Source: Dictyostelium discoideum
Taxonomy: Eukaryota
Assembly: GCA_000004695.1 (NCBI GenBank)
Contig: CM000152.2
Location: forward strand, 864,001-928,000
Reading direction: 5' to 3'
DNA: 64,000 nucleotides
Shown here piece by piece: positions 12,958 through 64,000 of the stretch. Each line of letters starts with the position of its first letter. The first letter of the stretch is position 1. The position numbers were made by a program, and so were the translations under genes. The notes beneath the pieces are model-generated. The model was not told the DNA's origin. It was given only the letters and a program-made list of their open reading frames with translations, and ran no database searches.

Positions 12958-13011
<54 letters not shown>

Positions 13012-13535: not shown

Positions 13536-13673
13536 TTAAAATAATCTTCTTATCTCTCAATTAATAATTATTATAATAATAATAACAACAATTCAAAAAT
13601 TAAAATTTCATTTTAATTTTTATTTTTGCTTCATATTAAAAATGATTTAAAAATAAAAACATAAATAAATATA

Positions 13674-13713
<40 letters not shown>

Positions 13714-13847
13714 AAATTCCAGGTGTTGGTTTTATTGAAAATAAGATAATTTATTTACATTCACATCTCTCAAAAAAAGATAAAGAATATTGAGAGAAAA
13801 CTTTTTTTTTTTTAAAAACCAAGAATATTGAGATTTATTTTTTTTTT

Positions 13848-16319
13848 TTACAAAACTTGTAAGTTTGAATTTTCCTGATAATCTTTGTAAAAATCTAACA
13901 TTTCTTGGGTGATACCTTTTTTAACATTACCAATTGCAGAGATGAAATGAGACATATTAATTTCTTTTGCATTAATATCTTCTTTCATTGCAGCAATTGA
14001 TGCCTCACGACAAATTGAAGTTACTTCAGCACCACTGTAACCATCGGTTAGAATTGAAAGTTGATTAATGTCAATGTCTGAAGAGTGAGGAACCTTTTTT
14101 AAATGAATATTGAATATTTCTTTTCTTGCATCTAAATCTGGTGGTGAAATATAGAGAATTCTATCTATTCTACCGGCACGTAATATAGCTTTATCGATGA
14201 TATCAGGTCTATTGGTGGCACCAATGATAGTTACATTTGTCAAAGGTTGGATACCATCCATTTCGGTTAAAAGTTGAGATACCACACGTTCAACGGCACC
14301 ACTACCTTCACCACTTCTACTGATGGCCAAGCCATCGATTTCATCGAAAAATAGAATGGATGGTGAGTTTTGGCGTGCTTTTTTGAAGATATCACGTACT
14401 GCTCTTTCAGATTCACCAACCCATTTACTTAAAAGTTCAGGTCCTTTTACTGCAATGAAATTTAAACCAGATTCAGTTGCTAAAGCTTTGGCTAATAAAG
14501 TTTTACTACAACCTGGTGGACCATATAATAGAATACCTTTGGGTGGTTTGATACCCATACGAATAAATGATTGTGGATATTTTAATGGCCATTCAATGGC
14601 TTCTTTTAACTTTTGCTTAATATGCTCTTGTCCACCAATATCTCCCCAAAATACTTTAGGTATTTCAACTACAACTTCTCTCATTGATGATGGTTTAACT
14701 TGATTCAATGCCAATAACATATCATTCATTGATAATTTAATTAATGATAATAAATTTTGAAGATTTTCTTCTTGTTTTTCTTCTTTTCCTTTTTCTTCTT
14801 TTTCAATATTAATTGATTGAAATAATTTTTGATTTTCATTTTTAATACGATTAAAACATTTTAATGATGCTTCTTTACAAAGCGATTCAATATCAGCACC
14901 AACGAAACCATGTGTTTTTGAGGCAATCATTGCTATCTCTTGTGATGTTAATTGATTTGGAATTTTTGAAAGGAAAATATTTAAAATTTGTTCTCTACCT
15001 TGTTGATTTGGAATTGATATTTCAATTTCATTATCAAATCTTCCAGGTCTTCTTAATGCTGAATCAATACTATCAGGTCTATTAGTGCAACCGATTACTA
15101 TAACTTTATCACCACCACAATTACCATTACCATTACCATTATCACCACCACCACCATCATTTTGATCACTTGTTGATACAACACCATCCATTAATGTTAA
15201 TAAACTACCAACTATACGTTTTTCAACTTCTGAACTATTATCTTCACGTTTTGGGCATAATGCATCCAATTCATCAATGAAAATGATTGAAGGTGATTTT
15301 TGTGCAGCATCTTTAAATATTTTTTGTAAAGTTTTTTCAGTCATACCATAGAATTTGTCAAGGATATCAGCACCATTGATTGTAAATAATGTTGCATTGG
15401 TTTGAGTTGCAACAATTCTTGCCAATAATGTTTTACCTGTACCTGGTGGACCATATAATAAAATACCTTTTGGTGGTTTAACTCCAAATGATTTTAATAA
15501 ATCTAATTTATAAAATGATAGATCAATTAATTCTCTAATTTGTTTAACTTGTAAATCCAAACCACCAATTGATTGAAAATTTAAATTTATATTTTTATTA
15601 TTATCAATTTTATTATTACTATTATTATTATTATTATTATTACTATTTATTGTGGATTCACAAATTAAAGTTGATTGTAAATTTGAATTAATTAATTTTA
15701 TTTTTGTTGATTCACAAATTCTAAAAATTGATTTAATAAATTCATTATCAATATTATCTTTTTTTTCTTTTAAACTTAATTTATTGAAATCTAAACTATT
15801 TATATCACAATCATCATTATTATTGCTATTATTATTACTACTATTATTTTCAATTTTATTAATTGATAATTTTAAAATTTTAAATTTTATAATATTATTG
15901 CTTAGATGAATTGTAAAGGAATTTTGAGGAATGAAATATCTACCAATGATTTGTGATAAAATTAAAGTTTCAAGCATACCAAATGATTGAAGTGATTGTA
16001 CATATTGTTGTTGTGATATTGTTTCACATTGAATTTCTAAATATCTACAATCTAATTTCGGATATATATTTGAAATTAAAAGATTGTTTGATACGGTATT
16101 TACAGATTGAAATGGTGTTTTAAATAAATAAACATAGTCACCAATTTTAACATTACAATTCTCTCTTTGAATTGAATCTAATTGAATATGTTGTGTTGAT
16201 AGTTTTTGTAATGGCCATGCTGTCATTATTGAACAGTTACTACCACTACTATTTATATCTTTATTATTACAATTAAAATAATTCCATGGTATTTCTGAAT
16301 TATTATTATTATTGTTTTC

Positions 16320-44849: not shown

Positions 44850-45095
44850 ATTAAAAATATTAAAAAATAATAAAAATAATATATATAAATATTAAATAGT
44901 ACTAAAAATAATAATATATAAATAAATTAATTTATATTTATAAATAAAATTTTTTTTTTCAAAAAAAAAAAAAAAGATAATTTATTTATTTTTTTTATTT
45001 TTTTTTATAATTTTAGAAGATAATAAAAACTTAATTTTCTCTTCTTTTTTTTTAAATTTTTTAGGGGTGTTTATAATATACATATATATATGTCA

Positions 45096-45134
<39 letters not shown>

Positions 45135-45147
45135 GGGAGGGGTGATT

Positions 45148-45474
45148 TTAAAAGTCAGATACCCTTCCATTTCTTTCCCAATCATTATATCTGGTTGGTT
45201 CTGGGCCTTTTGGTCCACCAATTTCTTTTGTTATTGGATTAACATATGGTTTAAATTCATCTTCGTCAAATTCTTCTTCTAAATCTTGTAAAAGTTGTTG
45301 ATTTTCCTTACTCATTTCAGCTTTTTTATTTGAAATATTGTTATTATTATTATTATTATTATTATTGTTATTGTTATTTATTGTTGTTGAATAAAAACTA
45401 CAATTAATTTTATTTGTTTGTTTGGTTGCATTCAAATAAATAATTTTATTGAATTTACTAATTAGGTTGTTCAT
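45148..45474 (-). CDS. Succinate dehydrogenase assembly factor 4 (SDHAF4, DUF1674) homolog, 108 aa. It has an N-terminal mitochondrial presequence-like region with a poly-Asn insert.
   Basis: The C-terminal signature [43 protein letters not shown] matches the SDHAF4 consensus (...[35 protein letters not shown]). Confidence 0.7.
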
Positions 45475-46003
45475 TTCTTTTTTTGGATATTTGTTTTTTT
45501 TTGTTTTTTTTTTTTTTTTTAAATAAAAGTTTTTTGTGTGTGAAATATGAAAATAAAAATTAAAAAACGTTAGAATATCTTTTTTTTTTTTTTTTTTTTT
45601 TGATTTTTTTTTTATTTTATTTTATTTTTATTTTTATTTTATTTTTTTTTTTTATTAAATGATGGTAATAATCAAATAATTCAATAAAATAAAAAAGTAA
45701 AATAAAAAAAAAAAAAATTTAAATAAAAACTTAATAATACAGTGTACCGATAATTATATATATTTTTTATATATATTTTTTTTTATTTTATATTTTTATT
45801 TTTATTTTTATTTTTATTTTTATTTTCTGATTCCAAAAGAAAAAAGATTTTTTTATTTTTCTATTTTTCTATTTTTTTTTTTTTTTTTTTTTTTTCTTTT
45901 CATTTTTTTATTTTATTTTTTTTTTCCTTCACAACCAGTTATAGTAATAAAGATTTATAAATATAATCTTCATATTCAAATTATTTTCTCTTTGTGTCTC
46001 TTG

Positions 46004-46006
<3 letters not shown>

Positions 46007-46056
<50 letters not shown>

Positions 46057-46079
46057 CAGCAGTGTGGTAGCTACCACAC
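46007..46079. promoter_or_regulatory. T50 homopolymer immediately followed by a perfect 18-bp palindrome gtgtggtagctaccacac (46062..46079). It sits in the divergent promoter between SDHAF4 (-) and the PH-domain gene (+).
   Basis: Read directly; the palindrome is fully self-complementary and GC-rich relative to the flanks. Confidence 0.55.
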
Positions 46080-46260
46080 AACAGAGAGAATTTTAATCCT
46101 AAAAAAGGTATCCACATAACTTTATTTATTTAAATTTTTAATTTTATTTTTTATTTTTTATTATTTTTATTTAATATATTTTATTTTTTATTATTTTTTT
46201 TTTTAAAGTTTATTTATTTATTTATTTATTTTTTTTTTTGATTTTTTTTTTCTTTTTTTT

Positions 46261-46316
46261 ATAACCATACACATACACTCACTATCACACACACACATAC
46301 ACACCACCACACATAT
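46261..46316. promoter_or_regulatory. CA-rich element (ccatacacatacactcactatcacacacacacatacacaccaccacaca), about 290 bp upstream of the PH-domain gene ATG.
   Basis: A C/A-only island in AT-rich DNA. CA-rich (CAE-type) elements are established cis-elements in Dictyostelium developmental promoters. Confidence 0.4.
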
Positions 46317-46603
46317 ATATTTATATATATAAAAAATATATATAAATATACATATATATAACACCACAAGCACAAAAATTCATCCACATATTTTTAACTT
46401 TATTTTTATTTTTTTCCTTTTATTTTATTAGTACATATAATTCAATATATATATATATAAATACTAATATATATTTTTTACTCCAACCAGAAATAAAAAT
46501 AAAATAAAAATAATAATAATAATAATAATAAAAAAAATCTAAATAATAAAAAAATCAAAAAAAAAAAAAAAATAAAAAAAAAAAAAACAAATCATTAAAA
46601 ATA

Positions 46604-49450
<2,847 letters not shown>

Positions 49451-49722
49451 AATTATTATAAAATAATAATAAAAAAAAAATAATTTATAAATAATAATGA
49501 ATTATTTACGATTCTAGTTGAATAAAAAATAAAATTGACTACAATCAAAAAAAAAAAAAAAAAAAATTAAATAATTAAAAAACTAAAAAACTAAAAAAAT
49601 GGTGTATTTGTTTCTTTTTTTTTTTTTTTTTCCATTTTCTTGTTTTGTTCTGTTTTTTTTAATTTTTTTTTTAATTCCATTTTTTTTTTTTTTTTTTTTT
49701 TTATTTTCTAAAAATAAAAAAA

Positions 49723-50075
49723 ATGAAAAAACCATATAATAAAAAAGTAAATGTAAACAAATGTATGGCAAATGATTTGATTATTACTTTTCCAATGAGA
49801 GATGAACAAATTATAGCCAAACTAGATTCAATCAAAAGATGGAAAAATGTAAATAAAAATCTTTATTCAATTGATGATTTTTGTTCATTATTGAATGAAT
49901 TTGAAATGATTCAATTTTCAATAGGAGGAAGCCCTTTGTTTAATAAAAACAATGGTAAACAATATAATTATTTAAAAGAATACAATTTGACTTCAACTTA
50001 TTTTAAAATGATTCAAAGAGAAAGAGATTTTTCAGTTTTAACAAGTTTTAAATCTGATATTATTAATAATGTAGG

Positions 50076-50107
<32 letters not shown>

Positions 50108-51845
50108 AATAATGAATAATATTTATTTATTTATATTTATTAATTTTTTTTTAAAAAAGGGAATTCAAAAAAAATCAAATGGATTACGTACTCAAATTTT
50201 AGGTAAATTAAATGATGATGGATCACCAATTTTTAAAAAAGATACAATACTTAATCATGTAGCTGAGGAATTAATAATAGATATGAAAGAAAATAAAGCA
50301 ATTGAGATTAAACATGAATTTTTTAGAGATATAGATTTTAATAGATTAAATCGTAAAACAAATAAAATTGGTGAAAATTGGATCACTGTGGATAAATTTC
50401 CATTTGGTTCACTTGTTATTCCAAAATTTAAAGAAATTTGTCACTCTGTTTTAAAAGAATTATTTTTAATTAATAGAGATGATACACTAATAAAAATAAA
50501 TTCATTAGCAGAAGATATTTTAATTGGATTTATTGATAGTTGTTTCAATGATAAAACTCCAGTTGGAAAGGAAATTTTATTTGAACTTTTTAAAAACCAT
50601 ATACTTAATAATAATAAAACTGATGAAATTGAATCATTATTCCCAATTGAAAGAATAATAAATAGTTGTATTATTAGAGATGATTGGTTTAGATTTAATT
50701 ATGGTAAATCAATAGCACAAGATTTATTTTTACCACATTTTCAAGATAGTTTTTCAATAAATGTTTATGAAAATTATCAATTATTCACACACAAAAATAT
50801 TTCTAAATTATCAGATAATGTATTGTTAAAGCATACAAATAGGAAAAAGTCAGAATCAATAGTGATTGGAGAATCATCAATTGTTAATAAGGAAAAGTTT
50901 ATTGAAAATTTTCATTTGGTTACAAATAATATGTTTAATGATTTTTCAAAAATTCCAAAAACATGTTATTTTATTGGTGGTATACTTACAGCATGTTTAA
51001 CAGATTCAATTAATGAAGATGAATATAGAGATAGCGATATTGATGTTTGTTTTACTGGTTATGAGTCAAATGATATTGTAGAGTTCGTTGAAACATATTT
51101 TGGATCTTTGGATGAATTACAAACTGATAAAACAACTACGATTCATGGTGATCATTTAACAATTTCAAAGTATTATCCAAATAGACATGTTCAAATTAAT
51201 CTTCACTTTTATCCTACACTTGAGAGCATTTTAGTAGGTGTTGATATCGATGCATCTTGTTTTGCATTCAATGGAAAGGATTTATACTGTTTGGAAAGAG
51301 CTATGCATTCAATAAATTATAGTATTAACATTGCTTGTGAATTTAACTTTAATGTTAGAGGTAATGGCCATTATCAAAAACGGTTGGTTAAATATTTAGA
51401 TCGTGGTTTTCATATCTACTATTTACCAACACCACAAATTAATTATTTTTTTAGTGATATTATACTTAAGGTGAGTGAAAATGATGGGTTCTCTCCAACA
51501 CTTAATCAGAATGGAATTGCTTTATTAGCATCAGCAAGCCTATCAAAACAAATTCTAAAAGAGTTAAAGAAACCATCATTTTCAATTCCTTATGGTCCAT
51601 CATATGATAAAATAAGTACAGATTTGTTCATTAGATCAACCTATAAATCTATGTATAATGGGTATTCAACACCAATGTGTCATAGAATTATAGATACTGT
51701 TGGTGAAGGCGAAGATTCAATTAATACCATTTTATTTGAAACCAGATCTATCGAGAGTCTATCTTTTAATAGATATTCATGGGAACAACATATCACCAAT
51801 GAAGCTTTAAGATCAAATTTATTTAATTATAACCAATTTTTTTAA
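49723..51845 (+). CDS. Hypothetical protein, about 678 aa. Structure is join(49723..50070, 50160..51845). It has no confident family. The C-terminal half carries a G-G...D-x-D pattern compatible with a Pol-beta-like nucleotidyltransferase fold; this is speculative.
   Basis: The 126-aa ORF ends ...SFKSDIINN at a GTAGGT donor (50071). The acceptor AAAAAAG| at 50158-50159 restores GIQKKSNGLRTQILGKLNDDGSPIFKK..., the 577-aa ORF frame minus its junk N-terminus. Motifs are CYFIGGILTACLTDSINEDEYRDSDIDVCF and later LVGVDIDASCFAFNG. Confidence 0.5.
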
Positions 51846-51939
51846 ACTTTAAATAAATAAAAAAAAAAAAAGTAAAAAAACACCAATTGAATCAAAATTT
51901 ATTAATTTAAAATTAAAGAATAAAATTTATTTTTAATTT

Positions 51940-52760
51940 TTTTTTTTGTTTTTCGATTTTCATTTTCGTTTGTAATTTTTTATAGGCCCATATGGTTGGT
52001 TATATATTTGATTCAGAAAGTTTTGCTTTGTGGAAAGTTTTTTTTTTTTCCCTTCTTTGGATAAAAATGCAACTATTAATTAATATTTGTCGACACCACC
52101 TTTGTTACCAAGTGGGTTATTTAAATTATTAGTACTTTGATTATTTGATTTTTCAAAATTAATTGAAATTGATTTTGAGTTGATGTCATCAAAGGTTTTA
52201 TTTAAGGCTGATGATGAGGATTTATTTAAAATTTTTGTTAATGTAGTGAAAATCATTTTTTATTTTAATTTATTATTTTTATTAAATTAAACTATATTTT
52301 TTTATAAAATTATAATATTTTATTATTTTAAATTTTATTTAATTTAATTATATTTGTTTTGAATGAATAGAAATGAAAAATCATTTTTTTTATTAAATAC
52401 TTTTTAAAAAAATAAAAAAAATAAAATAAAAATAAAAAAATAAATAATTAATGTTAAAAATAGAATTCTATTTTAATAGTAACTTAACAAGTTGATGCTC
52501 CCCAATGGATTATTAAAAAAACGAAAAATAAGTTAATTTTAACATTATATTGATGATAAAATTGGATGGAAATGATGGAGAGAAAAATATCAAAAATAAA
52601 CATTCAACTGAAAATTATCAATATTATGATCGTTGTTATTTAGTATAACTATTTATTGAACATATAATATTCATTTTTACACTAATATTTCACTTTTAAT
52701 TGTGACTAATCCACAAATAATTTACCCCTTTATTTTTTAAATTATTTGTTTTTATTTTTA
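51940..52760. repeat. Copy 1 of a diverged roughly 0.85-kb repeat unit.
   Basis: Roughly 85-90% identity by eye to 54140..54990, e.g. cgtttgtaattttttataggcccatatggttggtta... versus cgtttgtaatattttttataaacccatatggttggtta..., through ...tttacactaatatttcacttttaattgtgactaatccacaaat. Confidence 0.7.
52080..52256 (-). CDS. Conserved small ORF (58 aa) inside repeat copy 1: MIFTTLTKILNKSSSSALNKTFDDINSKSISINFEKSNNQSTNNLNNPLGNKGGVDKY. Coding status is unproven.
   Basis: ATG-to-TAA ORF on the minus strand. A 59-aa counterpart lies at 54286..54465; it differs by several synonymous substitutions and a clean 3-nt (one-codon) deletion, which preserves the frame. Confidence 0.35.
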   Translation of the reverse strand: MIFTTLTKILNKSSSSALNKTFDDINSKSISINFEKSNNQSTNNLNNPLGNKGGVDKY

Positions 52761-52958
52761 AATTCGAACTAAAATAATTTTGTTAAACCCCTAAAAAAAA
52801 AAAAAATTAAAGTGCATTATGGGTTAAATAGTTTTTGTATTGTGGAATAATTTAAAAAATTTGGGTGTAAAAATGATTATTATTTTTTACCCAATAAAAT
52901 TAGTGCCAATTATATTAGTTATTTATCAGTTGGAAATACCTCATCGATCTGATTTAAT

Positions 52959-53011
52959 AAGTTAAATGGGGATTATCTAATCATTCAATTTAGATAATCC
53001 TCCTTTAACTT
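52959..53011. repeat. Near-perfect 22-bp inverted repeat (20 of 22 positions match) with a 9-nt loop: aagttaaatggggattatctaa / tcattcaat / ttagataatcctcctttaactt.
   Basis: Read directly. Confidence 0.5.
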
Positions 53012-53099
53012 ATTTTTGGGTTTTAAACTATTTTTATCGAAAGCATTGATTTGTTAAATAACTATACTGTGATTATCAGTTCTATTTATAACTTTTTTT

Positions 53100-53143
<44 letters not shown>

Positions 53144-54139
53144 AAATAAAAAAAAAAAAAATTTTTTAATCAAAAATGAAAATTCTATTTCATTACCCAA
53201 ATAATTAAAAACAAATAAAAAAACGAAATTAAAATATAATCAACCTAAAAATGATTTCAATACTTTAACTAAAATTTCAAATAAAACATCATCATCATCA
53301 TCTTCAAATACAAGATTTGGTATTAATTCTAACTAGTTCAAATAAATTTTGGTAATAATTTAAAAATGATAGCTTCATTGTCAATTAATAAACTTGGTCC
53401 AAGAGGTGGTATTTGACAAATCAAAAATTCAATTTTCAATTATAAAATTATGCTCTCGATTGTGCACGAAAAAAAAAAAAAAAAAAATTAAATAAAACTT
53501 TCATTTTTCTATGATTTTAATTTATTTTTTAATTTTATTATATTTCAACTATTATTTGTATTTAATTTATTTTAATTTACCACCATTGAAAAATCAAAAA
53601 TATAATTAAAAAATAAAATTAGTTAAAAAAAAAAAAAAGTATGAAATGATTTTTGGAACAATTATTATACAAATATAATCAATTTTTTACACATTGTTCA
53701 ATTGATTGAAAAATAATATAATAACCCCATATTATATTTTATATGATTTTATTACACTAGAGTTTTATTGAACAACCCCACCACAAAAAAAAAAATAAAA
53801 AAAAATAATTTAATAATTAAATAAAAAAATTGAATTATTTGTGGACTTACCGCCATGGCAAAGATGAATGATTATAGATTGTATAATTGAATTATGAACA
53901 ATAATAATATTTATTTTCATTTGTCACTATTTTTGGTTTATTGTTTTTATATATTTTTACACGTTTTCAAATCGATCAATAAAGATTTATCATCTTACTA
54001 TAAAATAAAAAGAAATACAACAAAATAAATTAAAAAAATTAAAATTAAATAAAATAAATTCCAATATGAAATTATATTATCTTTAAAAAAAAAATTAAAA
54101 TTTAATTAAAAAATAAATTTTTTTTTAAAGTTTATTTTA

Positions 54140-54990
54140 ATTTAATTGTTTTTCAATTTATTTTTTCGTTTGTAATATTTTTTATAAACCCATATGGTTG
54201 GTTATAAATTTAATTCGGAAAGTTTTGTTTTGTTGAATTTGGAGTGGAAATTCCCTTTTTTTTTCTTTGGATAAAAATACAATTATTAATTAAAAGTTCT
54301 TGATATACCACCTTTGTTACCAAGTGGATTATTTAAAATAATAGTACTTTGATTATTAGATTTTTCAAAATTAATTGAAATTGATTTCGAATTGATATCA
54401 AAGGTTTTATTTAAGGCTGACGATGAGGATTTATTTAAAATTTTTGTTAATGAAGTGAAAATCATTTTTTATTTTAATTATTTTTATAAACTATTTAGAT
54501 ATTATCTTATTAAAATAATAATATTTAATTATAAATTTTTTTTTTTTAATTGTATTGAGTAATGAATAGAAATGAAAAATCATTTTTTTTATTAAATACT
54601 TATTAAAAAAAATAAAAATTAAATAAAAAAATAAAAATAAAAGAAAATAATAAAATAAAAATAATAAATGTTAAAAATAGAATTCTATTTTAATAGTGAC
54701 TTATCAAGTCGATGCTTGAGAATGTATTATTAAAAAACGAGAAATAAGTTAATATTGTAATTAAATTGTAATTAAATTGATGATATAATTGGATCGAAAT
54801 GATGGAGAGAAAAATATCAAAAATAATATTCAACTGAAAATTAACAATATTATGATAGTTGTTATTCAGTACAATTATTTATTGAACAAATAATATTCAT
54901 TTTTACACAAATATTTCACTTTTAATTGTGACCAATCCACAAATTACAAACAAATAATTCACCCCCTTTTTTATTTTAAATTATTTGTTT
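54140..54990. repeat. Copy 2 of the same unit, about 2.2 kb downstream in the same orientation. It is followed by a roughly 340-bp copy-specific insertion.
   Basis: Collinear with copy 1 including the small ORF. After about 54990, homology resumes only at ...ccaaccaaaataattttgtt (about 55360) relative to copy 1 ...cgaactaaaataattttgtt (52770). Confidence 0.7.
54286..54465 (-). CDS. Conserved small ORF (59 aa) inside repeat copy 2: MIFTSLTKILNKSSSSALNKTFDINSKSISINFEKSNNQSTIILNNPLGNKGGISRTFN.
   Basis: Paralog of 52080..52256; same strand, same position within the repeat unit. Confidence 0.35.
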   Translation of the reverse strand: MIFTSLTKILNKSSSSALNKTFDINSKSISINFEKSNNQSTIILNNPLGNKGGISRTFN

Positions 54991-55081
54991 TTTATTATTT
55001 TTTCTTTTTTTTTATTTTTTTTTTTTAGTGGTTGAACAAATAAACTTAAGGTTTCAATTCAAAACACAATTATTAAAAATA

Positions 55082-55275
55082 AAAAAAAACCCAATTCAAT
55101 GATTAATAATTAATATTAAAAAAAAAAAAATCAATATTTCTATAAAATAAAAAAATAAAAAAATAAAAATAAGATTTCAATGAAATTATTATTGACTTTA
55201 ATCTTAAATTCCTACTCTAAAATTTTTTTTATTTTTTTTTTAAATAATTATTAATCATTGAATTGGGTTTTTTTT
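55082..55275. repeat. Perfect 31-bp inverted repeat pair (55082..55112 and 55245..55275) flanking a 132-bp spacer, located within the copy-2-specific insertion.
   Basis: aaaaaaaacccaattcaatgattaataatta and taattattaatcattgaattgggtttttttt are exact reverse complements. Confidence 0.7.
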
Positions 55276-55656
55276 AATCCAAATACTTTGGTAAAATTAC
55301 TAACAAAATGTTCAAGTATATTTATATATATTTATTATTTTTAAATCATTAATTTTTAGATCCCAACCAAAATAATTTTGTTTATTTTTTATATAAAAAA
55401 AAAAAAATAAAAAAAATAAAAAGAATATAAAAAAATAAAAAAATTAAAAAAAAGTGATAAGATTAGATCCATGGAGAAATGGTGATTATTCAATTAATAT
55501 CACAAATGAAAGTATTAAAATCAAATGAACAAATTAATAATCAAACTTTTTAATTATTAAAACAATACAATACAATACAATACAATTTATTTATTTTTTA
55601 ATTTTTTTTTTTATTATTTTTTTTATTTTATTTTATTTTTATAAAGATAATTTGAA

Positions 55657-58533
55657 TCAGTTTGCATTTGCAAATTCTCTTGAAACGAGAATAGCTTCAT
55701 CGATTTTATCTAATTTAGAACCAACACCTTGAGCAACATCAACTTTACCACCACCTTTACCACCTAAAACTTCGGTAACCTTTACAACCCAAGCATTTGC
55801 AGTTAAAGTTTTTGAGATTTCAGAATCTTTTGGAACGATACCAATGCAAGTAACTTTACCTTTTTCTTCATCTGGACTAATTAACATGATTGCAGTCATT
55901 GGTGATTTAGTTTGAATTTTTTTAATGGTTTCAGTGATTAAAGGAGTATTTGAATTGAAGTTTACTAAATCTACGAAAACCTTTGGTTGAGATTTAGCCA
56001 ATTCTTCAGAGGTTTTCTCTAAATAGGTTTGAGCTTGTTGAGCCAAGATGGTTTCTTGTTCTTTGACTTGTTTTCTTTGGAGTGCTTGAACTTCCTTCAA
56101 AGTTTCAACCAAATTCATACGAACACTTGCTGAAATGGTGACAACCTTGAGAAGATCTAATAAGGAAACGATTTCCTTGGCAAGTTCTGAACCTGATAAT
56201 TTGAGGGCATTATTGAATCTGACTTCCAATTCTTTATTGAGTTCTATAGCAGAGGCAGCTTCAGAACCAGTGACAGCGACGATACGACGTACACCAGCAC
56301 CCAAAGTTTCTTCAGAGGTAATGGTGAAGAGTTCAGCTTGTTTAGTGTTTGACAAATGTGTACCACCACAAAATTCGATGGAATAGTTTGCCCATTCTGG
56401 ATTGGTTGGATTTTCAATCAATTGTTCAACTGGTACACCAACAGAGACAACTCTAACTGGATCTGGATAAACTTCACCGAAAACTGCACGAAGACCATTG
56501 ATCTTTTTAGCGGAAGCCAAACCGACCTCTTTGGCGTGAACATCGAGTTGTTTAAAGATTTGATCATTAACGATTTGGTCAATTTTAATGAGTTCATCCT
56601 TGGTGATTGCTCTACCAAATGAAAAATCGAATCTGAAACGTTGAGCGTCGACAAAGGAACCACGTTGATCGATACCATCACCTAAAATATTCTTGAGTGC
56701 GTAATTGACCATATGAGTTGATGTATGATTTGACATAATTGGTGAACGACGAGTATAGTCGACGGTGAGTTCAACACGATCACCAACTTTCAAAGAATCG
56801 CATTCATAGGAGAGGTAACCAATATGAAGTACATAACCACCAAATACTTTACAATCCTTGACGTCGAAAGCAGTCTTTTGATCATCGATGAAACTCAATT
56901 GACCAATATCATAGATTTGACCACCTTGTTCAGCGTAAAAGTTTGAATTCTCTAAAACTACACCAATTAAGGTACCCTTTGGAGCAGTGTCAACAAATTC
57001 CTTACCATTCCAAATGGCTTTGATAACTGATTGAATTTCATGTTGTTTATATTTGAATGAATCATCGGTTGGTTTGATATCGTTATTCTTTAACCATGCA
57101 TTTGCTTCAGCACCGAGTGTTAATTCGACCTTCTTTTCCTTTTGACGTTTACGATCGATTTCAGATTGAGCTTCACAGAGTCCTTCATAACCTTTGATAT
57201 CGACTTTGTAATTCTTTTCTTCGGCCATAATGGTGGTTAAATCGATTGGGAAACCATAACAAGTTGAAAGGAAATAAGCATTCTCGGCAGAGAGGGTATT
57301 ATTTACACTCTTTTTGATCATTTTTTCAAATTCAACAATACCTTTCTCCAAAGTTTTATTGAACATATCCTCCTCACGAGTGAGTACCATTTTGATGTGT
57401 TCTGGTTTCTTTCTGAGTTCTGGGAAGAATTCACCAAAGTTTGCAATGACAACATCAACCAATTTAGAGAAGAAACCAGCTGGTGCATTTAATTTTTGTT
57501 TACCATAACGGACGGCACGACGAAGGATTCTACGGAGGACTTGACCTCTACCATCGACGGATGGGGCGGCACCATCAGCAATTGAGAATGTGAGTGTACG
57601 AATGTGATCGGCAATGACACGATAGGCCATATCAACTTGTTGTGTATCTTCAGCACCGACTTTTCCACCGTATGGTTCTGGATAACCAGTTACCTCTTGA
57701 ATGGCGGCAAAGATTGGCATAAAAACATCGGTATCATAATTGGTTGGTACTTTTTGAATGATTGAAGTTAAACGTTCGAGACCCATACCAGTGTCGACGT
57801 GTTTTTGTGGTAATGGACGTAAGGATTTATCAGCCTCACGATTATATTGAATGAAAACCAAATTCCAAATTTCAATCAAAGTTGGGTCATCAGCATTGAC
57901 AAAGGAGGCACCATCACGACCTTCCACTTTGTCATAGTGGATCTCTGAACATGGACCACATGGACCTTGGTCACCCATCTCCCAAAAGTTCTCTTTCATA
58001 CCGAATGGGAGCACACGTTCCTCTGGTAAATATTGCAACCAAAGGTTCTTTGCTTCGAGATCTGCTTCCAATCCTTTCTCTGGGTCACCTCTAAAGTAAG
58101 TGACATATAAACGTTCTTTATCTAATTTGTATACCTCTGTCAATAATTCCCATGCCCAAGTGATTGCCTCCTTCTTAAAGTAATTGCCAAATGACCAATT
58201 ACCCAACATCTCAAAGAAGGTGTGATGATAAGTATCCTTACCTACATCATCCAAATCATTATGTTTACCACCTGCACGAATACATTTTTGACTATTGACT
58301 GCTCTCTTCAATTTTGCTTGTTCTGATTTTGGATTAACTTGTCCTAAAAAGATTGGTTTAAATTGATTCATACCTGCATTTGCAAATAATAAAGTTGGAT
58401 CATCATGTGGAATTACTGCTGATGATGGAACAAATGTATGTTCACATTTCTCTCTAAAAAAATCGATAAAAGTTTTTCTAATTTGATTAACATCCATTTT
58501 TTTTCTTCTTTTATATTTTCTCTCTCCTTCCAA
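55657..58533 (-). CDS. alaS: Alanyl-tRNA synthetase, cytoplasmic type (class II aaRS). It is 958 aa from the first ATG or 946 aa from the second (MDVNQIRKTF...). Single exon.
   Basis: An N-terminal catalytic core (FVPSSAVIPHDDPTLLFANAGMNQFKPIFLG; motif 2/3 region), the tRNA-recognition domain, the editing domain with HTSTHMVNYALKNILG (HxxxH) and ...CGGTH, and a C-terminal C-Ala/DHHA1-like domain. It is collinear with eukaryotic AlaRS throughout. Confidence 0.9.
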   Translation of the reverse strand: MEGERKYKRRKKMDVNQIRKTFIDFFREKCEHTFVPSSAVIPHDDPTLLFANAGMNQFKPIFLGQVNPKSEQAKLKRAVNSQKCIRAGGKHNDLDDVGKDTYHHTFFEMLGNWSFGNYFKKEAITWAWELLTEVYKLDKERLYVTYFRGDPEKGLEADLEAKNLWLQYLPEERVLPFGMKENFWEMGDQGPCGPCSEIHYDKVEGRDGASFVNADDPTLIEIWNLVFIQYNREADKSLRPLPQKHVDTGMGLERLTSIIQKVPTNYDTDVFMPIFAAIQEVTGYPEPYGGKVGAEDTQQVDMAYRVIADHIRTLTFSIADGAAPSVDGRGQVLRRILRRAVRYGKQKLNAPAGFFSKLVDVVIANFGEFFPELRKKPEHIKMVLTREEDMFNKTLEKGIVEFEKMIKKSVNNTLSAENAYFLSTCYGFPIDLTTIMAEEKNYKVDIKGYEGLCEAQSEIDRKRQKEKKVELTLGAEANAWLKNNDIKPTDDSFKYKQHEIQSVIKAIWNGKEFVDTAPKGTLIGVVLENSNFYAEQGGQIYDIGQLSFIDDQKTAFDVKDCKVFGGYVLHIGYLSYECDSLKVGDRVELTVDYTRRSPIMSNHTSTHMVNYALKNILGDGIDQRGSFVDAQRFRFDFSFGRAITKDELIKIDQIVNDQIFKQLDVHAKEVGLASAKKINGLRAVFGEVYPDPVRVVSVGVPVEQLIENPTNPEWANYSIEFCGGTHLSNTKQAELFTITSEETLGAGVRRIVAVTGSEAASAIELNKELEVRFNNALKLSGSELAKEIVSLLDLLKVVTISASVRMNLVETLKEVQALQRKQVKEQETILAQQAQTYLEKTSEELAKSQPKVFVDLVNFNSNTPLITETIKKIQTKSPMTAIMLISPDEEKGKVTCIGIVPKDSEISKTLTANAWVVKVTEVLGGKGGGKVDVAQGVGSKLDKIDEAILVSREFANAN

Positions 58534-59435
58534 AATATCTATATTTAAAAAAAAAAATAAATAAATAAATTAAAAAGAAAAAAAAAAATGAAAAAAAAAA
58601 TTTTTGTTTTGAAAAAAAAAAAAAAAAAATAAAAATAAAAAAAAAATTAAAAAAATTTTAAAGTTGTCGGTTTATAAAGAAATTAAGAAAAAAAAAAAAA
58701 TTAAAACTTAAAATTTATTTAATAAAATAAAAACAAAAAAGGTTACAAAATATTTTACTAAAGACCTATTCTTATCAAATTCCTAACTTATCAATTTTTT
58801 TTTTATTTTATTTTTATTTTATTTTTTTATTTTATTTTTATTTTTTTTTATTTTTTATTTTTTTAATTTTTTTTTAATTTTTTTTAATTTTTTTTTTGAT
58901 TTCTTTTTTTTTATTATTTTTGTGGTGAATTGGGGTGATATGTGTAAACCATTCACACCAATCGTTTTTTTTTTTTTTTTTTTTTTTTTTTTGGAATTAA
59001 TTTGGTAATTAAATTTTTATACAATTTTGGTATAGATTTTAAATCCTCACTTACTTTATTTTTTTCTTAAAATAACAAAAATTAAAAAAAAAAAAATAGA
59101 TAAAAAATTATTTTATTTTTATTTTTATTTTAAGAAATTTCTTTTTTTTTTTTTCTAACAAATCTGATTTTAACCAAAAATTTAATTGTTAGAATTTAAT
59201 TATTCATCATTAATTTTTATTTAATTCACTTATTTTTGATTAGATTTAAAAATAATAAAAAAATAAATGTTCATTAAATTATCTCATTTTTTTAATTAGA
59301 TTTAAATTAAAAAAATTGTTTTATTTTAATATGGGTTTTTTTTATTATTATTAAAAAAAGTAAATTATAAAAAAAAAAAAATAATAAAAAAAAAAAAAAT
59401 AAAGATTTTTATTTTAATCTTTAATGATTTTTATT

Positions 59436-59743
59436 TTAATCTTTAATTAAACATTCTTTTGGGCATTTGAAAGTATATTTAACACATTCACTTTTATCTC
59501 TTTGTTTTCCATTATCATCTGAACAACCATGATTTTTCAAACATTGTTTGATACAAGCTTTGTGATCACTTTCAATATCTGCCATACAAATTTGATTTGA
59601 TGACATTAAAGCTAAAAATGCGATAATTGCAACTAATAATAATTTATAATTCTAATAATTAAAAAATTAATAAAAATACTAATTCTTTTTTTCTTATCTT
59701 TGTTTAAAAAAAATAAAAAAATAAAAAAATAAATTCCTACCAT
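59436..59743 (-). CDS. Small secreted 8-Cys protein, about 72 aa. Structure is join(59436..59651, 59741..59743). The start codon alone forms exon 1: ATG|GTAGGA...TTATTAG|.
   Basis: The minus-strand frame NYKLLLVAIIAFLALMSSNQICMADIESDHKACIKQCLKNHGCSDDNGKQRDKSECVKYTFKCPKECLIKD* has a clear signal peptide but no in-frame ATG. An ATG sits 89 nt upstream, immediately followed by GTAGG, with an AG acceptor right before AATTATAAA. Coordinates are approximate to about 1 nt. Confidence 0.5.
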
Positions 59744-59829
59744 TATTTAAAATTTTTTCAATCTTATTTACTAAATTTAATTTTTATTCCTCTATTTATA
59801 CCTTTTTTTTTTCAAAAAAAAAAAAAAAA

Positions 59830-59863
<34 letters not shown>

Positions 59864-60370
59864 ATAATAATAATAATTATAAAAAAAAAAAAAAAGATTT
59901 AAATGATTAATAGACAATTATTTGAAAATAAAATTATAATAAATTATGATGTATTAAATAATTCATTGACAATCTAGAAAAATTTAAATTATTTTATATT
60001 ATTTACCACCAAAAAAAAAAATAAAAAAAAAATAAAAAAAATAAAAAAAAAATAATAAAATAATAATAACAAAAAAAAATAAAAAATTCAATGTTGTGGT
60101 GATTGAATTACCATGGTTTATGATACATTAGTATTTTTACTATTAATACCACACTATTATTCTTAAAACGATTATATTCCAACATTTTTTTTTTTATTCT
60201 TTCCAACCCAATTTCCAATTATCCCCGCCTTTTTTTTTTTTTTTCATATTTTTTTTTTTAATTTTTTTTTTTTTTTAATTTTTTTTTTTTGTCAGTTTTG
60301 GTTACCAAAAAAAAAAAAAAAAAAAAAAAAATCAAAAAAATAATTTATTAATAATAATAATTAATAAATA

Positions 60371-60425
60371 ATGGAAGATATTTCAACTATCAAAAAGCTA
60401 GAAGGATTATCAGTTCATTGCGAAG

Positions 60426-60456
<31 letters not shown>

Positions 60457-61018
60457 TAAGGAAAATATAAATAATGATGATAATAACATCAATCCAAATC
60501 GAAATGCAACATCATCACTTTTAAAAGGAAATATTCAACAAGTTAAAAAGAAAAAAGTATTTGCTAGATTACACTTATTTAATAGAGATGGCACTGTTAA
60601 ACAAATTGTTGAAATGAGAAAATATAAATTTATAATTGGATCGTATGTTTTTTTTTTTTTTTTTTTTTTCCTAAAAACTCTCTCTCTCTCATTTCATAAT
60701 ATATTAATATAATGAAAACACTGTAGTGATCAAAAATCAACGGATATTTTAATAACAAGACCAGGTGTTTATTCAAATCATGCAGAGATTATTTATGATA
60801 AAGAAGTTAGAAAATTTTATTTAAATCCATTAGTTGATCCAAGTATATCAGATACAATTAGAATTAATTTCATACCATTCATTAATAAAAAGGAAGTACT
60901 TGGTAATAATGATATAATTTCAATTGGTTTAAGAGCATTCAGAATTGAATTTTTTGCACCAGTTTATGTTGATAATTTAATTTTACCAAAGAATATTCAA
61001 CCACAACAACAACAACAA

Positions 61019-61050
<32 letters not shown>

Positions 61051-62602
61051 GGCACCAACCGCACAGAAAAAATTAAAACAAGAAGTTGAACATATTTTAA
61101 CAGCAGCAACAACAACACCAACAACAACAACAACAAAACCAAAAAAACTAAAAACTGCACCACCAACCACTGTAGCATCATCATCAACAATACCAAAAAC
61201 AACAACAACAAAAAAGCAAGCAATAGAACAACCATCAAAATCAAATTTGAAATCTAGCCAAAATAAGCTTTCAACAACCACAACAACAACAATAACTTCA
61301 AAACCACCATTAAATAAATCATCAATTGATGGTGATACTCGTTCAGAATCAAGTAAAGCATTACAAGGACTAAAACCTAAAGAACAAAAAAAAGATATAA
61401 TGAAAAGCTTAATCAGTTCCAAAAAAGCAAATACTCATGAAGAAAAAGAAGAAGGTGAAAGTGAAGAAGAAGAGGAGGAGGAAGAAGAAGAGGAAGAGGA
61501 AGAGGAAGAAGAAGAAGAAGAAGAACAATTAGAAGATAAACAGAAACAAACAAAAACTCCTATTTCACAAAATAAATCAGCATCATCAAATATTAAACCA
61601 TTATCAAAAACTTCTAAATCAAATCCACCACCACTATCAGCAGCAACAAAAAGCAATCCAGTTGTCAAGAAAATCACATCGACAACAGTAACGAGAACAA
61701 CTAAAAAAGCAGATACTGAAACAAAACAAGAAATTAAAATAACTAAATCATCCACTACCACCAAACAACAAACACAGGAAGAAATTGAACAAGAATTAAA
61801 ACTTGAATCAATTAGAAAAAGAATTGAACAATTTATAAATAAATTTGAAAAAGAAATTAATGATAATGATTTTAAAGATTTAGATGAGGGTAAAAGAAAA
61901 ATTAAGGAATCACTTGATTTCATATCAAAAACTAAATATGAGTTCCAAGGAACTACTTCAAATCCCGGTGATGTGGAATCCACTCCATTGGATAAATGGT
62001 TCAAGAATATTCCATATGAAGATTTTGTAGATTCTTTCAAACTTAAATATTATTCCATTATTACTGAACCAGTTTCAATAACATCAATATTAAATAAACT
62101 AAAGAGTGGTCCAAACTATCAATTGGCAGAGGTTTTAAAAGATTTTAAACAAATGTTAATAAATGTTACACTTTATCATAAAGAACCAAATGAATATTGG
62201 TGGATCTCTCATCAATGTAATATTCAATTCTATAAATCTTTATTAGAAACAGGTTTAATAACACAAGATCAATACCAAATTCAATATCAAACTTCAAATA
62301 ATGAAATAGTAAAGCTTGATAAAACTTTAAACTTAGTTCCAAAATTAGTTGTCGTTGAAAATAATGATGAAGATGATAATAATGATGATGAAGGAAGCAA
62401 AAAAGCAGTTCTTGTTGATGAAGATGAAGATGAATGTTTAAACAATCAAAATAATCCAACAACATATGATAGTGATGGTGATTTTGTAACCAAACAAAGT
62501 GATCAAGAAAGCGATGAAGAAAGCGATGAAGAAAGCGATGAAGAAAGCGATGAAGAGAGAGATCAACTTTCTGAAGAAGAAGATCAAGAAGCAACCAACT
62601 AA
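60371..62602 (+). CDS. FHA-domain plus bromodomain protein, about 715 aa. Structure is join(60371..60642, 60727..62602). It has poly-Q/T linkers, a poly-Glu stretch, and a C-terminal acidic (SDEE)n tail.
   Basis: Exon 1 ends ...FARLHLFNRDGTVKQIVEMRKYKFIIGS at a GTATGT donor (60643). Exon 2 after CACTGTAG| reads DQKSTDILITRPGVYSNHAEIIYDKEVRKFYLNPLVDPSISDTIRINFIPFINKKEVLGNNDIISIGLRAFRIEF (FHA). It stays open through the TTG-started 451-aa ORF, which contains a bromodomain-like PLDKWFKNIPYEDFVDSFKLKYYSIITEPVSITSILNKLKSGPNYQLAEVLKDFKQMLINVTLYHKEPNEYWWISHQCNIQFYKSL. Confidence 0.65.
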
Positions 62603-62624
62603 AAGATAAAATAAATAATTAAAG

Positions 62625-62656
<32 letters not shown>

Positions 62657-62877
62657 AAAACAAAATAAAATATGTTTGATATTAAAATTTATAATCCCCC
62701 TAAGATTTTAATTTAAAATTTAGATTTATTTTATAGTTTGTAATTTTATTTTTGTTTTGTATTTAAATAATTTTTTTTTTTTTTTTCCTTAAAATTTTGT
62801 TGTTGGTATTATAATGGTGTATTTCGATATTCTTTTTTTTTTTTTTTTTTTTTTGTTTTGCAAATGTATATTATTTT

Positions 62878-64000
62878 TTACTTATTTTCTTTTGGTTTTT
62901 CTTCATCTTTTGGAGCTTCATTTACTGAAGTTTCTTGTTGTTCGCTTGATGGCTGTTGTTCGCTTGATTGTTGTTGTTGTTGTTGATCATCTTGAGTTGT
63001 TGGTTGTTTTTCATTTTTATCATCTACTTTAGTATTTTCATCATCTTGTTCAGTATGAGTTGTAATTTCTTGTTGTTCTTTAGTTAATTCATTAATTTTT
63101 TCTTTTACCATTTCTTGACCTTGTTCAGTTGAAAGATCAGATGGTAAATCTTTGACTACTTCATTCAAAACATCTTGTGGAATATGTTCTAAAGTATCTT
63201 CTAGGGCTTCATTTGTGGTGACACCTGGTGAAAGGGTGAAAGCACGAGATAAAATTAAAATGGATGGTGGTAAAGATTTATTTAGGGAAAGATCTAACCA
63301 TTGATCCAATTGACCTTCAATGAATTTTCTATTGTAACCTTCGACTTTGAAACCACGAGTGATGGCAGCATCGACCAATTCCTCCAAAGTCAATGAGCTA
63401 AGACCCTCTTTCTTGATGAGGATATCGTCTTGTTTGATCTTATCCAATTTTTTATAGATTTGAGCTTTAAGATACTCGTTGGAATACCATTTGGAGATGA
63501 AATTGGAACCTGCTAAATATCTATGCATCATCAAGAGTTGTGAACGAGTGATCTTCTCCATGATGATATCATCCTTAAAGTATTGAGACATCTTTAAAAC
63601 CTCATCAGAGGTGACGGTTTGACCACTCTTTACTTTGGTCATGAAATTGAAAAAGTCTTCGGTTTTAGTGTCCTTCTTGGATTCGGAGCTAATCTCATGT
63701 AAGAGATCCTTTAATTGACCACGAACCTTTGAATTACTCTTGGATCTAACGGTGGCACCCTCTAATCTTTCATTCTCCCATGTGTAGGTTGATGGTAAGA
63801 GATTTGGGAATAATTTCAAAATGAATGGTAATGCCAACTCTAAAAATGGTACCAATACAATGATAACAAATGGTACCAATCTCATTACATCTGCAGAGGT
63901 TTGAACCAATAATCTTCTCTCTCTTCTTGTTAATGTATGACCTTTAATAACTCTTTTAATCAATGCAACTGCAATACTAATATTCTTTCCCAATAATTTA
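62878..64000 (-). CDS. letm1: LETM1-family mitochondrial inner-membrane protein (K+/H+, Ca2+/H+ exchanger component). This is the 3' portion only; the gene continues beyond the window end.
   Basis: TRRERRLLVQTSADVMRLVPFVIIVLVPFLELALPFILKLFPNLLPSTY matches the LETM1 TM/RBD core (cf. human [42 protein letters not shown]). A coiled-coil and an acidic C-terminus follow. The frame is open to position 64000. Confidence 0.8.
   Translation of the reverse strand, partial: KLLGKNISIAVALIKRVIKGHTLTRRERRLLVQTSADVMRLVPFVIIVLVPFLELALPFILKLFPNLLPSTYTWENERLEGATVRSKSNSKVRGQLKDLLHEISSESKKDTKTEDFFNFMTKVKSGQTVTSDEVLKMSQYFKDDIIMEKITRSQLLMMHRYLAGSNFISKWYSNEYLKAQIYKKLDKIKQDDILIKKEGLSSLTLEELVDAAITRGFKVEGYNRKFIEGQLDQWLDLSLNKSLPPSILILSRAFTLSPGVTTNEALEDTLEHIPQDVLNEVVKDLPSDLSTEQGQEMVKEKINELTKEQQEITTHTEQDDENTKVDDKNEKQPTTQDDQQQQQQSSEQQPSSEQQETSVNEAPKDEEKPKENK

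Follow-up and report, generated by a model that had tools for sequence, protein, structure and literature searches.

We analysed a window of 64,000 nucleotides from Dictyostelium discoideum (contig CM000152.2, positions 864,001 to 928,000), and in particular an interval in which the 3' ends of two genes converge. A Gad2-domain neighbour gene lies on the plus strand, with an ORF that ends at position 51845 of the window, and alaS, whose product is an exact match to XP_642382 by protein look-up, lies on the minus strand and ends at 55657. These two ends, as given by the ORF list, bound the interval and are where the original prediction, made from the letters of the DNA alone, had put them. That prediction, however, called the interval gene-free and suggested that its two short ORFs might represent an unannotated small-protein gene family; exact look-up showed that both ORFs are annotated genes of AX4 (DDB_G0278465 and DDB_G0278467), each called a 'hypothetical protein' in the reference annotation.

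The two genes are carried by two copies of a repeat unit in the same orientation, and local alignment of the copies refined the approximately 0.85-kb extents first proposed for them. Unit 1 (51894..52759, minus strand), which is colinear with the orthologous locus L002, comprises approximately 500 bp of upstream DNA, the coding sequence and approximately 185 bp of downstream DNA; unit 2 (54091..54999, minus strand), delimited by its alignment to unit 1 and by comparison with L002, likewise comprises an upstream region, a coding sequence and a downstream region. The alignment contains 770 matches, 70 mismatches and 95 gap columns, corresponding to 91.7% identity over ungapped columns and 82% with gaps included, and one 21-mer taken from the unit is present at exactly two places in the 64-kb window, where none would be expected. 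Within unit 1, DDB_G0278465 (52080..52256, minus strand; ORF list, exact match to XP_642380/Q54Y22) encodes a type A peptide of 58 aa with the C-terminal tail GGVDKY. Within unit 2, DDB_G0278467 (54286..54465, minus strand; ORF list, exact match to XP_642381/Q54Y21) encodes a type A peptide of 59 aa with the tail GGISRTFN, which arises from a 2-nt indel relative to unit 1. Both ORFs run uninterrupted from ATG to stop at precisely the predicted coordinates, and the one-codon deletion of an aspartate and the synonymous changes reported to separate them are both real. When the interval was shuffled by mononucleotide, only 1.2% of the shuffles contained at least two ATG-initiated ORFs of 58 aa or longer. 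The start context AAAATAAAAAATG is identical in the two copies.

The upstream regions were duplicated along with the genes and, as judged from a six-sequence alignment, are partly conserved. In particular, the putative promoter or upstream region of DDB_G0278465 (52257..52760, minus strand) contains blocks that are common to unit 2, to the L002 orthologues and, in part, to the type C locus L005. GC-richer conserved blocks are found 250-500 bp upstream of the ATG, and an 18-nt palindrome occupies positions 52457-52474 of the DDB_G0278465 upstream region. A motif in the 3' region, CCCATATGG, was considered as an indication of a DUSE/class-I ncRNA; this assignment was dropped, as the sequence downstream of the motif differs between the copies.

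Between the two units lies a third, inverted copy. The degenerate plus-strand relic originally reported at 53366..53416 is real, but its extent is larger than was supposed: three-frame translation, comparison with the L002 copy and DNA alignments delineate a coding remnant at 53252..53416 (plus strand), which we assign to a type B pseudogene resembling DDB_G0268674, and self-blastn together with the six-sequence alignment revealed homology to the upstream regions at 52792..53251 (plus strand), arranged head-to-head with unit 1. In the self-blastn comparison positions 52792-53412 matched 54994-54305 at 64% identity, and positions 52154-52536 matched 53351-53005 at 66%. The pseudogene has lost one nucleotide in codon 3 and another near codon 29, the latter loss creating a stop; its terminal part still encodes MIASLSINKLGPRGGI*, and its frameshift-corrected translation aligns end to end with the family protein P0024. 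We also considered an intron joining 'RFG' to 'ASLSINKLGPRGGI' in this relic and rejected it, given that comparison with DDB_G0268674 reveals the relic to be a colinear, intronless type B gene carrying two frameshifts. Finally, an orphan fragment at 53650..53805 (minus strand) is homologous to the distal part of the DNA upstream of a type C gene, the P0020 locus, with 81% identity over 161 aligned columns to positions 1-156 of L005.

Searches with phmmer and with a family profile placed both window ORFs, by similarity over their full length, in a family of at least nine intact AX4 genes that are distributed over three contigs: five on a 4.92-Mb contig (DDB_G0268672, DDB_G0268674, DDB_G0268676, DDB_G0268688 and DDB_G0268690), the two described here, and two on a 5.45-Mb contig (DDB_G0283179 and DDB_G0283209). 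Family matches, which also include strain variants, had E-values of 1e-10 to 1e-31 and covered 95-100% of the query, and the paralogues are annotated solely as hypothetical proteins. A profile search run exhaustively against 1.84 billion proteins returned no further relatives, the only match beyond the family being one spurious repeat protein, and the family has so far been seen only in D. discoideum and its closest relatives. Our analysis defines a nine-member family with three subtypes for which there is no Pfam model; a Pfam scan of 12 family members gave no domain match, and a PDB profile search with the family came back empty. The genes have a single exon and encode 53-71 aa, and three features are invariant: an N-terminal amphipathic 12-mer, MIFTSLTKILNK, a central strand-like KSI.INFEK motif and a C-terminal NPLG..GG. 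Both window ORFs carry these hallmarks in alignments, with MIFT[ST]LTKILNK followed by a serine run, KSI.INFEK and NPLG..GG, and the AX4 paralogues share with them a MIF[TN][ST]L N-terminus, a central NSKS[IVL].I[ND]F and a C-terminal [NK][PK]LG..GG. The type A genes of the window end in NPLGNKGG, whereas those of the 4.92-Mb contig end in NPLGPQGG. The family peptides are basic (pI 9.2-10.3), rich in Ser, Asn and Thr, with no Cys and three to six Gly, and neither a signal peptide nor a membrane span was found in them. An AlphaFold2 model places helices at residues 2-12 and 17-27, but with low confidence (pLDDT 60, pTM 0.15). Searches of literature main texts for the nine family gene IDs found no mention of them.

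Comparison with related species indicated that most of the interval is specific to the D. discoideum lineage. By blastn, homology to D. citrinum ends at position 51836 of the window and restarts at 55498, leaving a block of approximately 3.6 kb whose approximate edges are 51846..55497. (Note that the edges were taken from blastn, as a global alignment of the D. citrinum spacer with the AX4 interval gave scattered, meaningless blocks.) The spacer between alaS and its neighbour is shortest in D. dimigraforme (105 bp), measures 312 bp in D. citrinum and reaches 348 bp in D. firmibasis, and none of these three spacers contained a match to the family. Among closer relatives, L002 has the block and L009 a degenerate form of it, and both genes are intact in AX4 and in the diverged D. 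discoideum strain ACTFIW. In the 'cf. discoideum' lineage ACTFIY the coding sequence has been deleted, and the locus is therefore dispensable in that lineage. In another 'cf. discoideum' lineage, ACTFIZ, the block is absent, and the same spacer has been independently invaded by an element with terminal inverted repeats.

The original prediction held that the two ORFs are constrained coding sequences. This view is borne out by the synonymous changes, the in-frame indels and the dN/dS ratios, but not by any extra nucleotide identity, since the paralogous coding sequences are 92.5% identical, which is not above the 91.9% of their flanks; constraint is therefore to be read from the kinds of change and not from overall conservation. 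Within the locus dN/dS ranges from 0.16 to 0.55, and against the distant type C homologue it is 0.4-0.6, with 14, 13 and 26 variable sites at the three codon positions. In two independent comparisons of AX4 and L002 orthologues, 10 of the 20 changes were synonymous, compared with 21% expected (p=0.004, pooled omega ~0.27), although such selection statistics are based on only 10-20 substitutions. Indels between the paralogues number 1.1 per 100 nt in the coding sequence and 5.1 in the flanks, and those in the coding sequence are multiples of three, with the exception of one 2-nt indel at the extreme end of the ORF, where the last four to six codons tolerate a frameshift. AX4 and the diverged lineage have kept both orthologues, each with its own tail, despite a substitution divergence of ~5-8% in the non-coding flanks. 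The third copy serves as an internal control, in that frameshifts and a stop have accumulated there; disrupted copies, which the original prediction would have counted against itself, were found only at this position and at the locus of one relative, and not among the other paralogues. Taken together, these comparisons support the idea that the ORFs belong to a family of small-protein genes whose coding sequence is constrained, under moderate purifying selection.

In published expression data the paralogues are almost silent. In the supplements of PMC4403905, as far as they were available to us, paralogues on the 4.92-Mb contig received 0-6 raw reads per sample across development, and in the accessible part of the cell-type RNA-seq table of PMC6198379 they did not exceed 0.8 RPKM in any sample. 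None of six family IDs was present in the differentially expressed gene list of PMC4403905 (file 7), and no family ID was found in the portions of supplement text obtained for PMC5580921 (sexual cycle) and PMC7078664 (bacterial exposure). The Logan contig L008 was set aside as transcript evidence, as it includes intron DNA of the neighbouring gene and is hence genomic or unspliced and uninformative. Luna and Chain 2021 (PMC8535579) catalogued the orphan genes of dictyostelids. In the sections available, DDB_G0268676 and DDB_G0268688 appear among the genes specific to the D. discoideum lineage, with expression that is low and stage-biased, and the window pair fits the same class; in the same sections the two paralogues are assigned to different orthogroups (OG0009298 and OG0009301, respectively) and so are not grouped together.

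The near absence of paralogue expression in those parts of PMC4403905 and PMC6198379 is what might be expected if the ORFs were annotated but functionless, that is, if recently duplicated AT-rich DNA contained short ORFs that survive by youth or chance, as proto-genes or as pseudogenes in slow decay, and the gene models were artefacts of annotation. The coding identity that does not rise above the flanks, the frameshifted C-terminal tail, the pseudogene in the interval, the loss of the coding sequence from ACTFIY and the lack of a domain or a reliable structure all point the same way. We nonetheless consider this explanation unlikely. AX4 contains nine intact ORFs, with 54-93% protein identity to DDB_G0278465, on three contigs, and at this base composition 58 codons would stay open by chance with a probability of ~0.002 per ORF. 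The synonymous and third-position excesses, the in-frame internal indels and the retention of both orthologues with their distinct tails also argue against it.

The reading that we favour, and regard as probable, is that the interval is an ordinary young lineage-specific mini-cluster made up of two intact single-exon genes, an inverted type B pseudogene and a stray type C promoter fragment. Dictyostelium is rich in small, duplicated orphan genes. According to this reading, the block would have entered the short 3' spacer between alaS and its neighbour after the D. discoideum lineage had separated from that of D. citrinum. The order of type A gene, type B pseudogene and type A gene in the window mirrors that of the consecutively numbered DDB_G0268672 (A), DDB_G0268674 (B) and DDB_G0268676 (A), which suggests that the block originated as a segmental copy of another family cluster and then diverged locally. 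Each gene would have been duplicated along with its 3' region and ~0.5 kb of the DNA upstream of it; because these sequences accompany the gene, each unit is most likely, as a prediction from sequence, a self-contained transcription unit. The block may since have undergone birth-and-death evolution, remaining intact in AX4 and ACTFIW and losing its coding sequence in ACTFIY. Our suggestions for the products are tentative: they may be conditionally expressed, dispensable and mostly disordered cytosolic peptides, and they might act through an N-terminal helix that binds a partner or a membrane. The locus has comparative value as a clean, dated cluster of promoter-plus-ORF cassettes inserted into a 0.1-0.35-kb convergent spacer, and the occurrence of intact, pseudogenised and deleted states in close lineages could make it a test case for orphan-gene birth and death if expression or a phenotype were shown.

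A more far-reaching version of events, to which we assign only a small chance, is that this is a very young de novo or extremely fast-evolving family of basic amphipathic peptides that originated inside the D. discoideum species complex, moved from chromosome to chromosome in the form of promoter-plus-ORF cassettes and is now variably present or absent among cryptic lineages. If so, a condition-specific role, for example in bacterial interactions, the sexual cycle or social conflict, could escape standard laboratory transcriptomes.

Copies of the family are dispersed over three contigs of AX4, the block represents an insertion when compared with the sister species, and the spacer of ACTFIZ was struck independently by an element with terminal inverted repeats. 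All of this would be consistent with the suggestion that the ORF is the coding remnant of some unclassified element, repetitive or transposable, of which the 0.87-kb unit would be a fragment. We find this very improbable. The units are not bounded by terminal repeats, inverted, direct or long, as would be expected of D. discoideum transposable elements (DIRS-1, Skipper, DGLT, TRE5/TRE3, DDT, thug), the only such matches being low-complexity A/T runs; no tRNA gene, a criterion for TRE elements, was found across 45000-64000; and no transposase, reverse-transcriptase or other Pfam match was detected, which is a weak test for a UTR-derived fragment. Moreover, proteome-wide searches recovered only a handful of copies (~10), and these differ in subtype and appear to be under moderate purifying selection.

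Less credible still is the kinship to HssA/UPF0512 proteins that the original prediction had sensed in the peptides, whether as divergent members of HssA/2C/7E (Pfam PF05710, 'Coiled') or of SigN/UPF0512. HssA begins with M-x-[IL]-F-x-S-[IL] and continues into a Ser-rich stretch, as do the peptides of the window family. Like these small prestalk proteins, the family peptides are shorter than 110 aa, have a Ser-rich N-terminal region and are encoded by clustered, multi-copy genes restricted to dictyostelids, here to the D. discoideum group, a likeness that is superficial. HssA and SigN proteins are rich in Gly and Cys and their genes are clearly developmentally induced, unlike the Cys-free, Gly-poor peptides studied here, whose paralogues on the 4.92-Mb contig are nearly silent in the parts of the expression tables cited above. 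None of the 12 members scanned matched PF05710 at E<=10, whereas the control HssA-type protein P0026 scored 68 bits (E=1.3e-18), and hhalign of the family alignment against P0026 gave a probability of 0.2%. For UPF0512, which was compared indirectly through the profile search of 1.84 billion representatives, among them AX4 proteins such as P0019, no outside protein, and hence no other D. discoideum family, was found at E<=1e-3. At the level of sequence the tempting HssA assignment is effectively refuted, and the UPF0512 one is improbable.

Equally hard to credit is a unit that is mainly a non-coding RNA or regulatory module with an incidental ORF, as the equal conservation of flanks and coding sequence and the GC-richer upstream blocks might suggest: an Rfam search at E<=1 gave nothing relevant, its sole sub-threshold match (U7) falling inside the neighbouring gene, the flank blocks contain many indels between copies, and the signals of codon position and synonymous excess are confined to the ORF.

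The AT-rich interval under study (8–25% GC) spans 3.8 kb between the end at 55657 of alaS, a minus-strand ORF whose translation is identical to alanyl-tRNA synthetase XP_642382 (AX4, 6,357,299-bp contig), and the end at 51845 of a plus-strand ORF. Local alignment of unit 1 (51894–52759) with unit 2 (54091–54999) gave 770 matches, 70 mismatches and 95 gap columns, corresponding to 91.7% identity on ungapped columns, and a 21-mer from the unit occurred exactly twice in the 64-kb window versus zero times expected by chance. An intact minus-strand ATG-to-stop ORF is present in each copy, encoding 58 aa in unit 1 (52080..52256) and 59 aa in unit 2 (54286..54465). The original observation of two same-orientation copies that each retain an ORF was therefore correct, the ORF coordinates included. 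Exact-sequence look-up identified the first ORF as XP_642380/Q54Y22 ('hypothetical protein DDB_G0278465') and the second as XP_642381/Q54Y21 ('hypothetical protein DDB_G0278467'). Thus the interval is not gene-free, and the small-protein family is not unannotated, as had been proposed; both genes are already known as hypothetical proteins in the reference AX4 annotation. A literature search found no mention of these identifiers, or of those of their paralogues, in the main text of the papers searched. (Note that the neighbouring 'hypothetical' gene, at 50112–51845 on the plus strand, has orthologues in other assemblies that match Pfam PF26128 (Gad2), and has an intron immediately upstream of 50112, at gtaggttttt and the run of T after it. 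A sub-threshold Rfam match to U7 snRNA inside the coding region of this gene (51511–51575, minus strand; 20.7 bits versus a gathering score of 34, E=0.31) is almost certainly due to chance.)

Sequence and profile searches revealed nine intact family genes in AX4: DDB_G0268672, DDB_G0268674, DDB_G0268676, DDB_G0268688 and DDB_G0268690 on the 4.92-Mb contig, DDB_G0278465 and DDB_G0278467 in the window, and DDB_G0283179 and DDB_G0283209 on the 5.45-Mb contig. Variants occur in further D. discoideum assemblies (ACTFIW_006231 and ACTFIR_010372), and assemblies of three sequencing runs contain short genomic contigs that encode P0020, a relative of 53 aa. The family has no Pfam or PDB match, and an HMM searched exhaustively against 1.84 billion representative proteins picked up nothing further except one spurious repeat protein. 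Alignment distinguished three subtypes: type A, to which both genes of the window belong, ends in NPLG[NP][KQ]GG; type B, represented by DDB_G0268674, ends in NNLKMIASLINKLGPKGGI; and type C, comprising DDB_G0283209 and P0020, carries SLQINF[ED]NKSKIQ..NPLGN[KQ]GG.

A degenerate third relic had been suspected at 53366..53416 on the plus strand. The relic is real, and its extent is greater than had been supposed, MIASLSINKLGPRGGI and the stop that follows being the C-terminal end of a full-length type-B pseudogene (53252..53416, plus strand). Relative to the copy in D. discoideum ACTFIW and to intact genes, the AX4 pseudogene lacks one T in codon 3, which changes ATGATTTTC to ATGATTTC, and another base near codon 29, whose loss produces a TAG stop; once both frameshifts are corrected, its translation can be aligned with DDB_G0268674 over the full length. 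The region upstream of the pseudogene (52792–53251) is an inverted homologue of the DNA upstream of the ORFs in units 1 and 2, and unit 1 and the pseudogene therefore lie head to head. At 53650–53805 on the minus strand, a 156-bp fragment shares 81% identity with the distal part of the DNA upstream of the type-C gene on the contig that carries P0020. Thus the interval is pieced together from at least four cassettes of the family, which from alaS towards the neighbouring gene are A, a C fragment, an inverted B pseudogene, and A. The original finding is real and is already explained by two annotated hypothetical genes and a pseudogene; together they form a young cluster, specific to the lineage and evolving by birth and death, of an uncharacterised family of nine small-protein genes.

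We compared the alaS locus in six other assemblies, taking identity to AX4 over the 3′ part of alaS and the spacer as the DNA between alaS and the Gad2-domain gene. In D. discoideum ACTFIW (97.0%; spacer 3378 bp) both A genes are intact, and the B copy is open at its N-terminus and has lost its C-terminus by deletion. In D. cf. discoideum ACTFIY (GCA_054859205.1; 96.1%; spacer 1957 bp) homologous upstream blocks persist, and the promoter and first five codons of the A gene, ATGATTTTCACTTCAT, are joined to the 3′ region with nothing in between, a clean deletion of the coding sequence; an isolated INKLGPKGG is the sole remnant of the B gene (12955–12990 and 14060–14075 of the ACTFIY sequence). 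The locus is thus naturally knocked out in ACTFIY. D. cf. discoideum ACTFIZ (GCA_054859235.1; 92.9%; spacer 1610 bp) contains no family DNA, and no family match was found in the spacers of D. citrinum (91.7%; 312 bp), D. firmibasis (90.5%; 348 bp) or D. dimigraforme (90.4%; 105 bp). The simplest reading is that the cluster inserted into a short convergent spacer in a common ancestor of AX4, ACTFIW and ACTFIY, which would explain the oversized spacer, and subsequently decayed in ACTFIY. The ACTFIZ spacer harbors an unrelated element of ~1.1 kb (13174–14253) with terminal inverted repeats of ~150 nt (13174–13325 and 14072–14253; 89–98% complementary) and an inner 60-nt palindrome (13521–13580 and 13630–13689); it resembles a MITE or DNA transposon, and within the species complex this spacer seems to have received insertions repeatedly. 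Across window positions 51000–55200, ACTFIW differs from AX4 by about 5–8% substitutions and many indels in non-coding DNA (3% in the 3′ part of alaS), and lacks ~0.5 kb (53395–53915), a divergence greater than we would expect of two strains belonging to the same species.

In nucleotide identity the coding sequence does not surpass its flanks, either between the paralogues (92.5% versus 91.9%) or between AX4 and ACTFIW orthologues (95% versus 92–95%); the signal of constraint lies in the kind of change. In particular, dN/dS is 0.28 between DDB_G0278465 and DDB_G0278467, 0.16–0.39 between orthologues, and 0.4–0.6 against the distant type-C gene, for which variable sites by codon position number 14/13/26 (chi-square p=0.05). 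When the two independent orthologue comparisons were pooled, 10 of 20 substitutions were synonymous versus 21% expected (binomial p=0.004, omega about 0.27). Indel events between the paralogues number 1.1 per 100 nt in coding sequence versus 5.1 in flanks, and coding indels are of 3 or 6 nt, except for one of 2 nt at the extreme 3′ end that replaces the tail VDKY-stop with ISRTFN-stop. Each tail is kept in its own ACTFIW orthologue; therefore the duplication is older than the AX4/ACTFIW split, and both copies have stayed open since. The case is strengthened by the nine open frames of 53–71 codons, for each of which the probability of occurring by chance, given the base composition, is about 0.002. 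We conclude that purifying selection on the ORFs is moderate, and the counts are small; of the constraint originally proposed, the synonymous changes and the in-frame deletion hold.

The main rival explanation, which we consider rather unlikely, is that the ORFs are functionless; it keeps this standing because the paralogues are near-silent and the coding sequence was lost in ACTFIY. In the PMC4403905 supplements (38 filter-development and 29 suspension samples), raw counts for the 4.92-Mb-contig paralogues are 0, with scattered values of 1–6 late in the series, and the cell-type RNA-seq table of PMC6198379 gives RPKM ≤0.8 across samples, with some undercounting possible through multi-mapping among near-identical paralogues. 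The full list of differentially expressed genes (PMC4403905, file 7) includes none of the six family identifiers searched, and the supplement of Luna and Chain (PMC8535579) describes DDB_G0268676 and DDB_G0268688 as D. discoideum lineage-specific, with low expression. Judged by these paralogue counts, the family is very weakly expressed at best under standard conditions. That the units might instead be remnants of a repetitive element, as was also suggested, fares poorly: no terminal repeats bound them, no tRNA gene lies nearby, no transposon domain was found, and there are only about ten copies. As for a non-coding RNA, an Rfam search gave no relevant match.

Returning to the small-protein family, an HssA/UPF0512-like character had been proposed, and the likeness is loose, confined to size, clustering and a Ser-rich N-terminus. 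HssA membership was rejected: the HssA-type protein P0026 matches Pfam PF05710 'Coiled' at 1.3e-18, whereas none of 12 family members scanned matched it at E≤10, and comparison of the family profile with P0026 gave a probability of 0.2%. All members are basic (pI 9.2–10.3, net charge +2 to +5), contain no cysteine and 30–44% Ser/Asn/Thr, and have an amphipathic N-terminal 12-mer (hydrophobic moment about 0.55); no hydrophobic stretch fit for a signal peptide or membrane span was found in any of them. AlphaFold2 predicted helices at residues 2–12 and 17–27, with a pLDDT of only 60 and a pTM of 0.15. Our tentative best guess is that the peptide is conditionally expressed, largely disordered, basic and cytosolic, and might bind a partner or membrane through its amphipathic N-terminus.

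Beside unit 2 lies a stretch of ~350 bp (55000–55348) that has no counterpart in unit 1 and holds a hairpin-forming inverted repeat (55079–55138 / 55219–55278; 60-nt arms, 85% complementary, 80 nt apart), which ACTFIW shares and which may represent the insertion of a small palindrome; both arms carry its 25-nt core, AACCCAATTCAATGATTAATAATTA, without mismatch, and the core has no other occurrence in the window. About 200 bp upstream of each ATG (52457–52474 and 54674–54691) lies AAAATAGAATTCTATTTT, a perfect palindrome of 18 nt; it is the same in both AX4 units and one ACTFIW unit, is mutated in the other ACTFIW unit and in the pseudogene, and is a candidate transcription-factor site.
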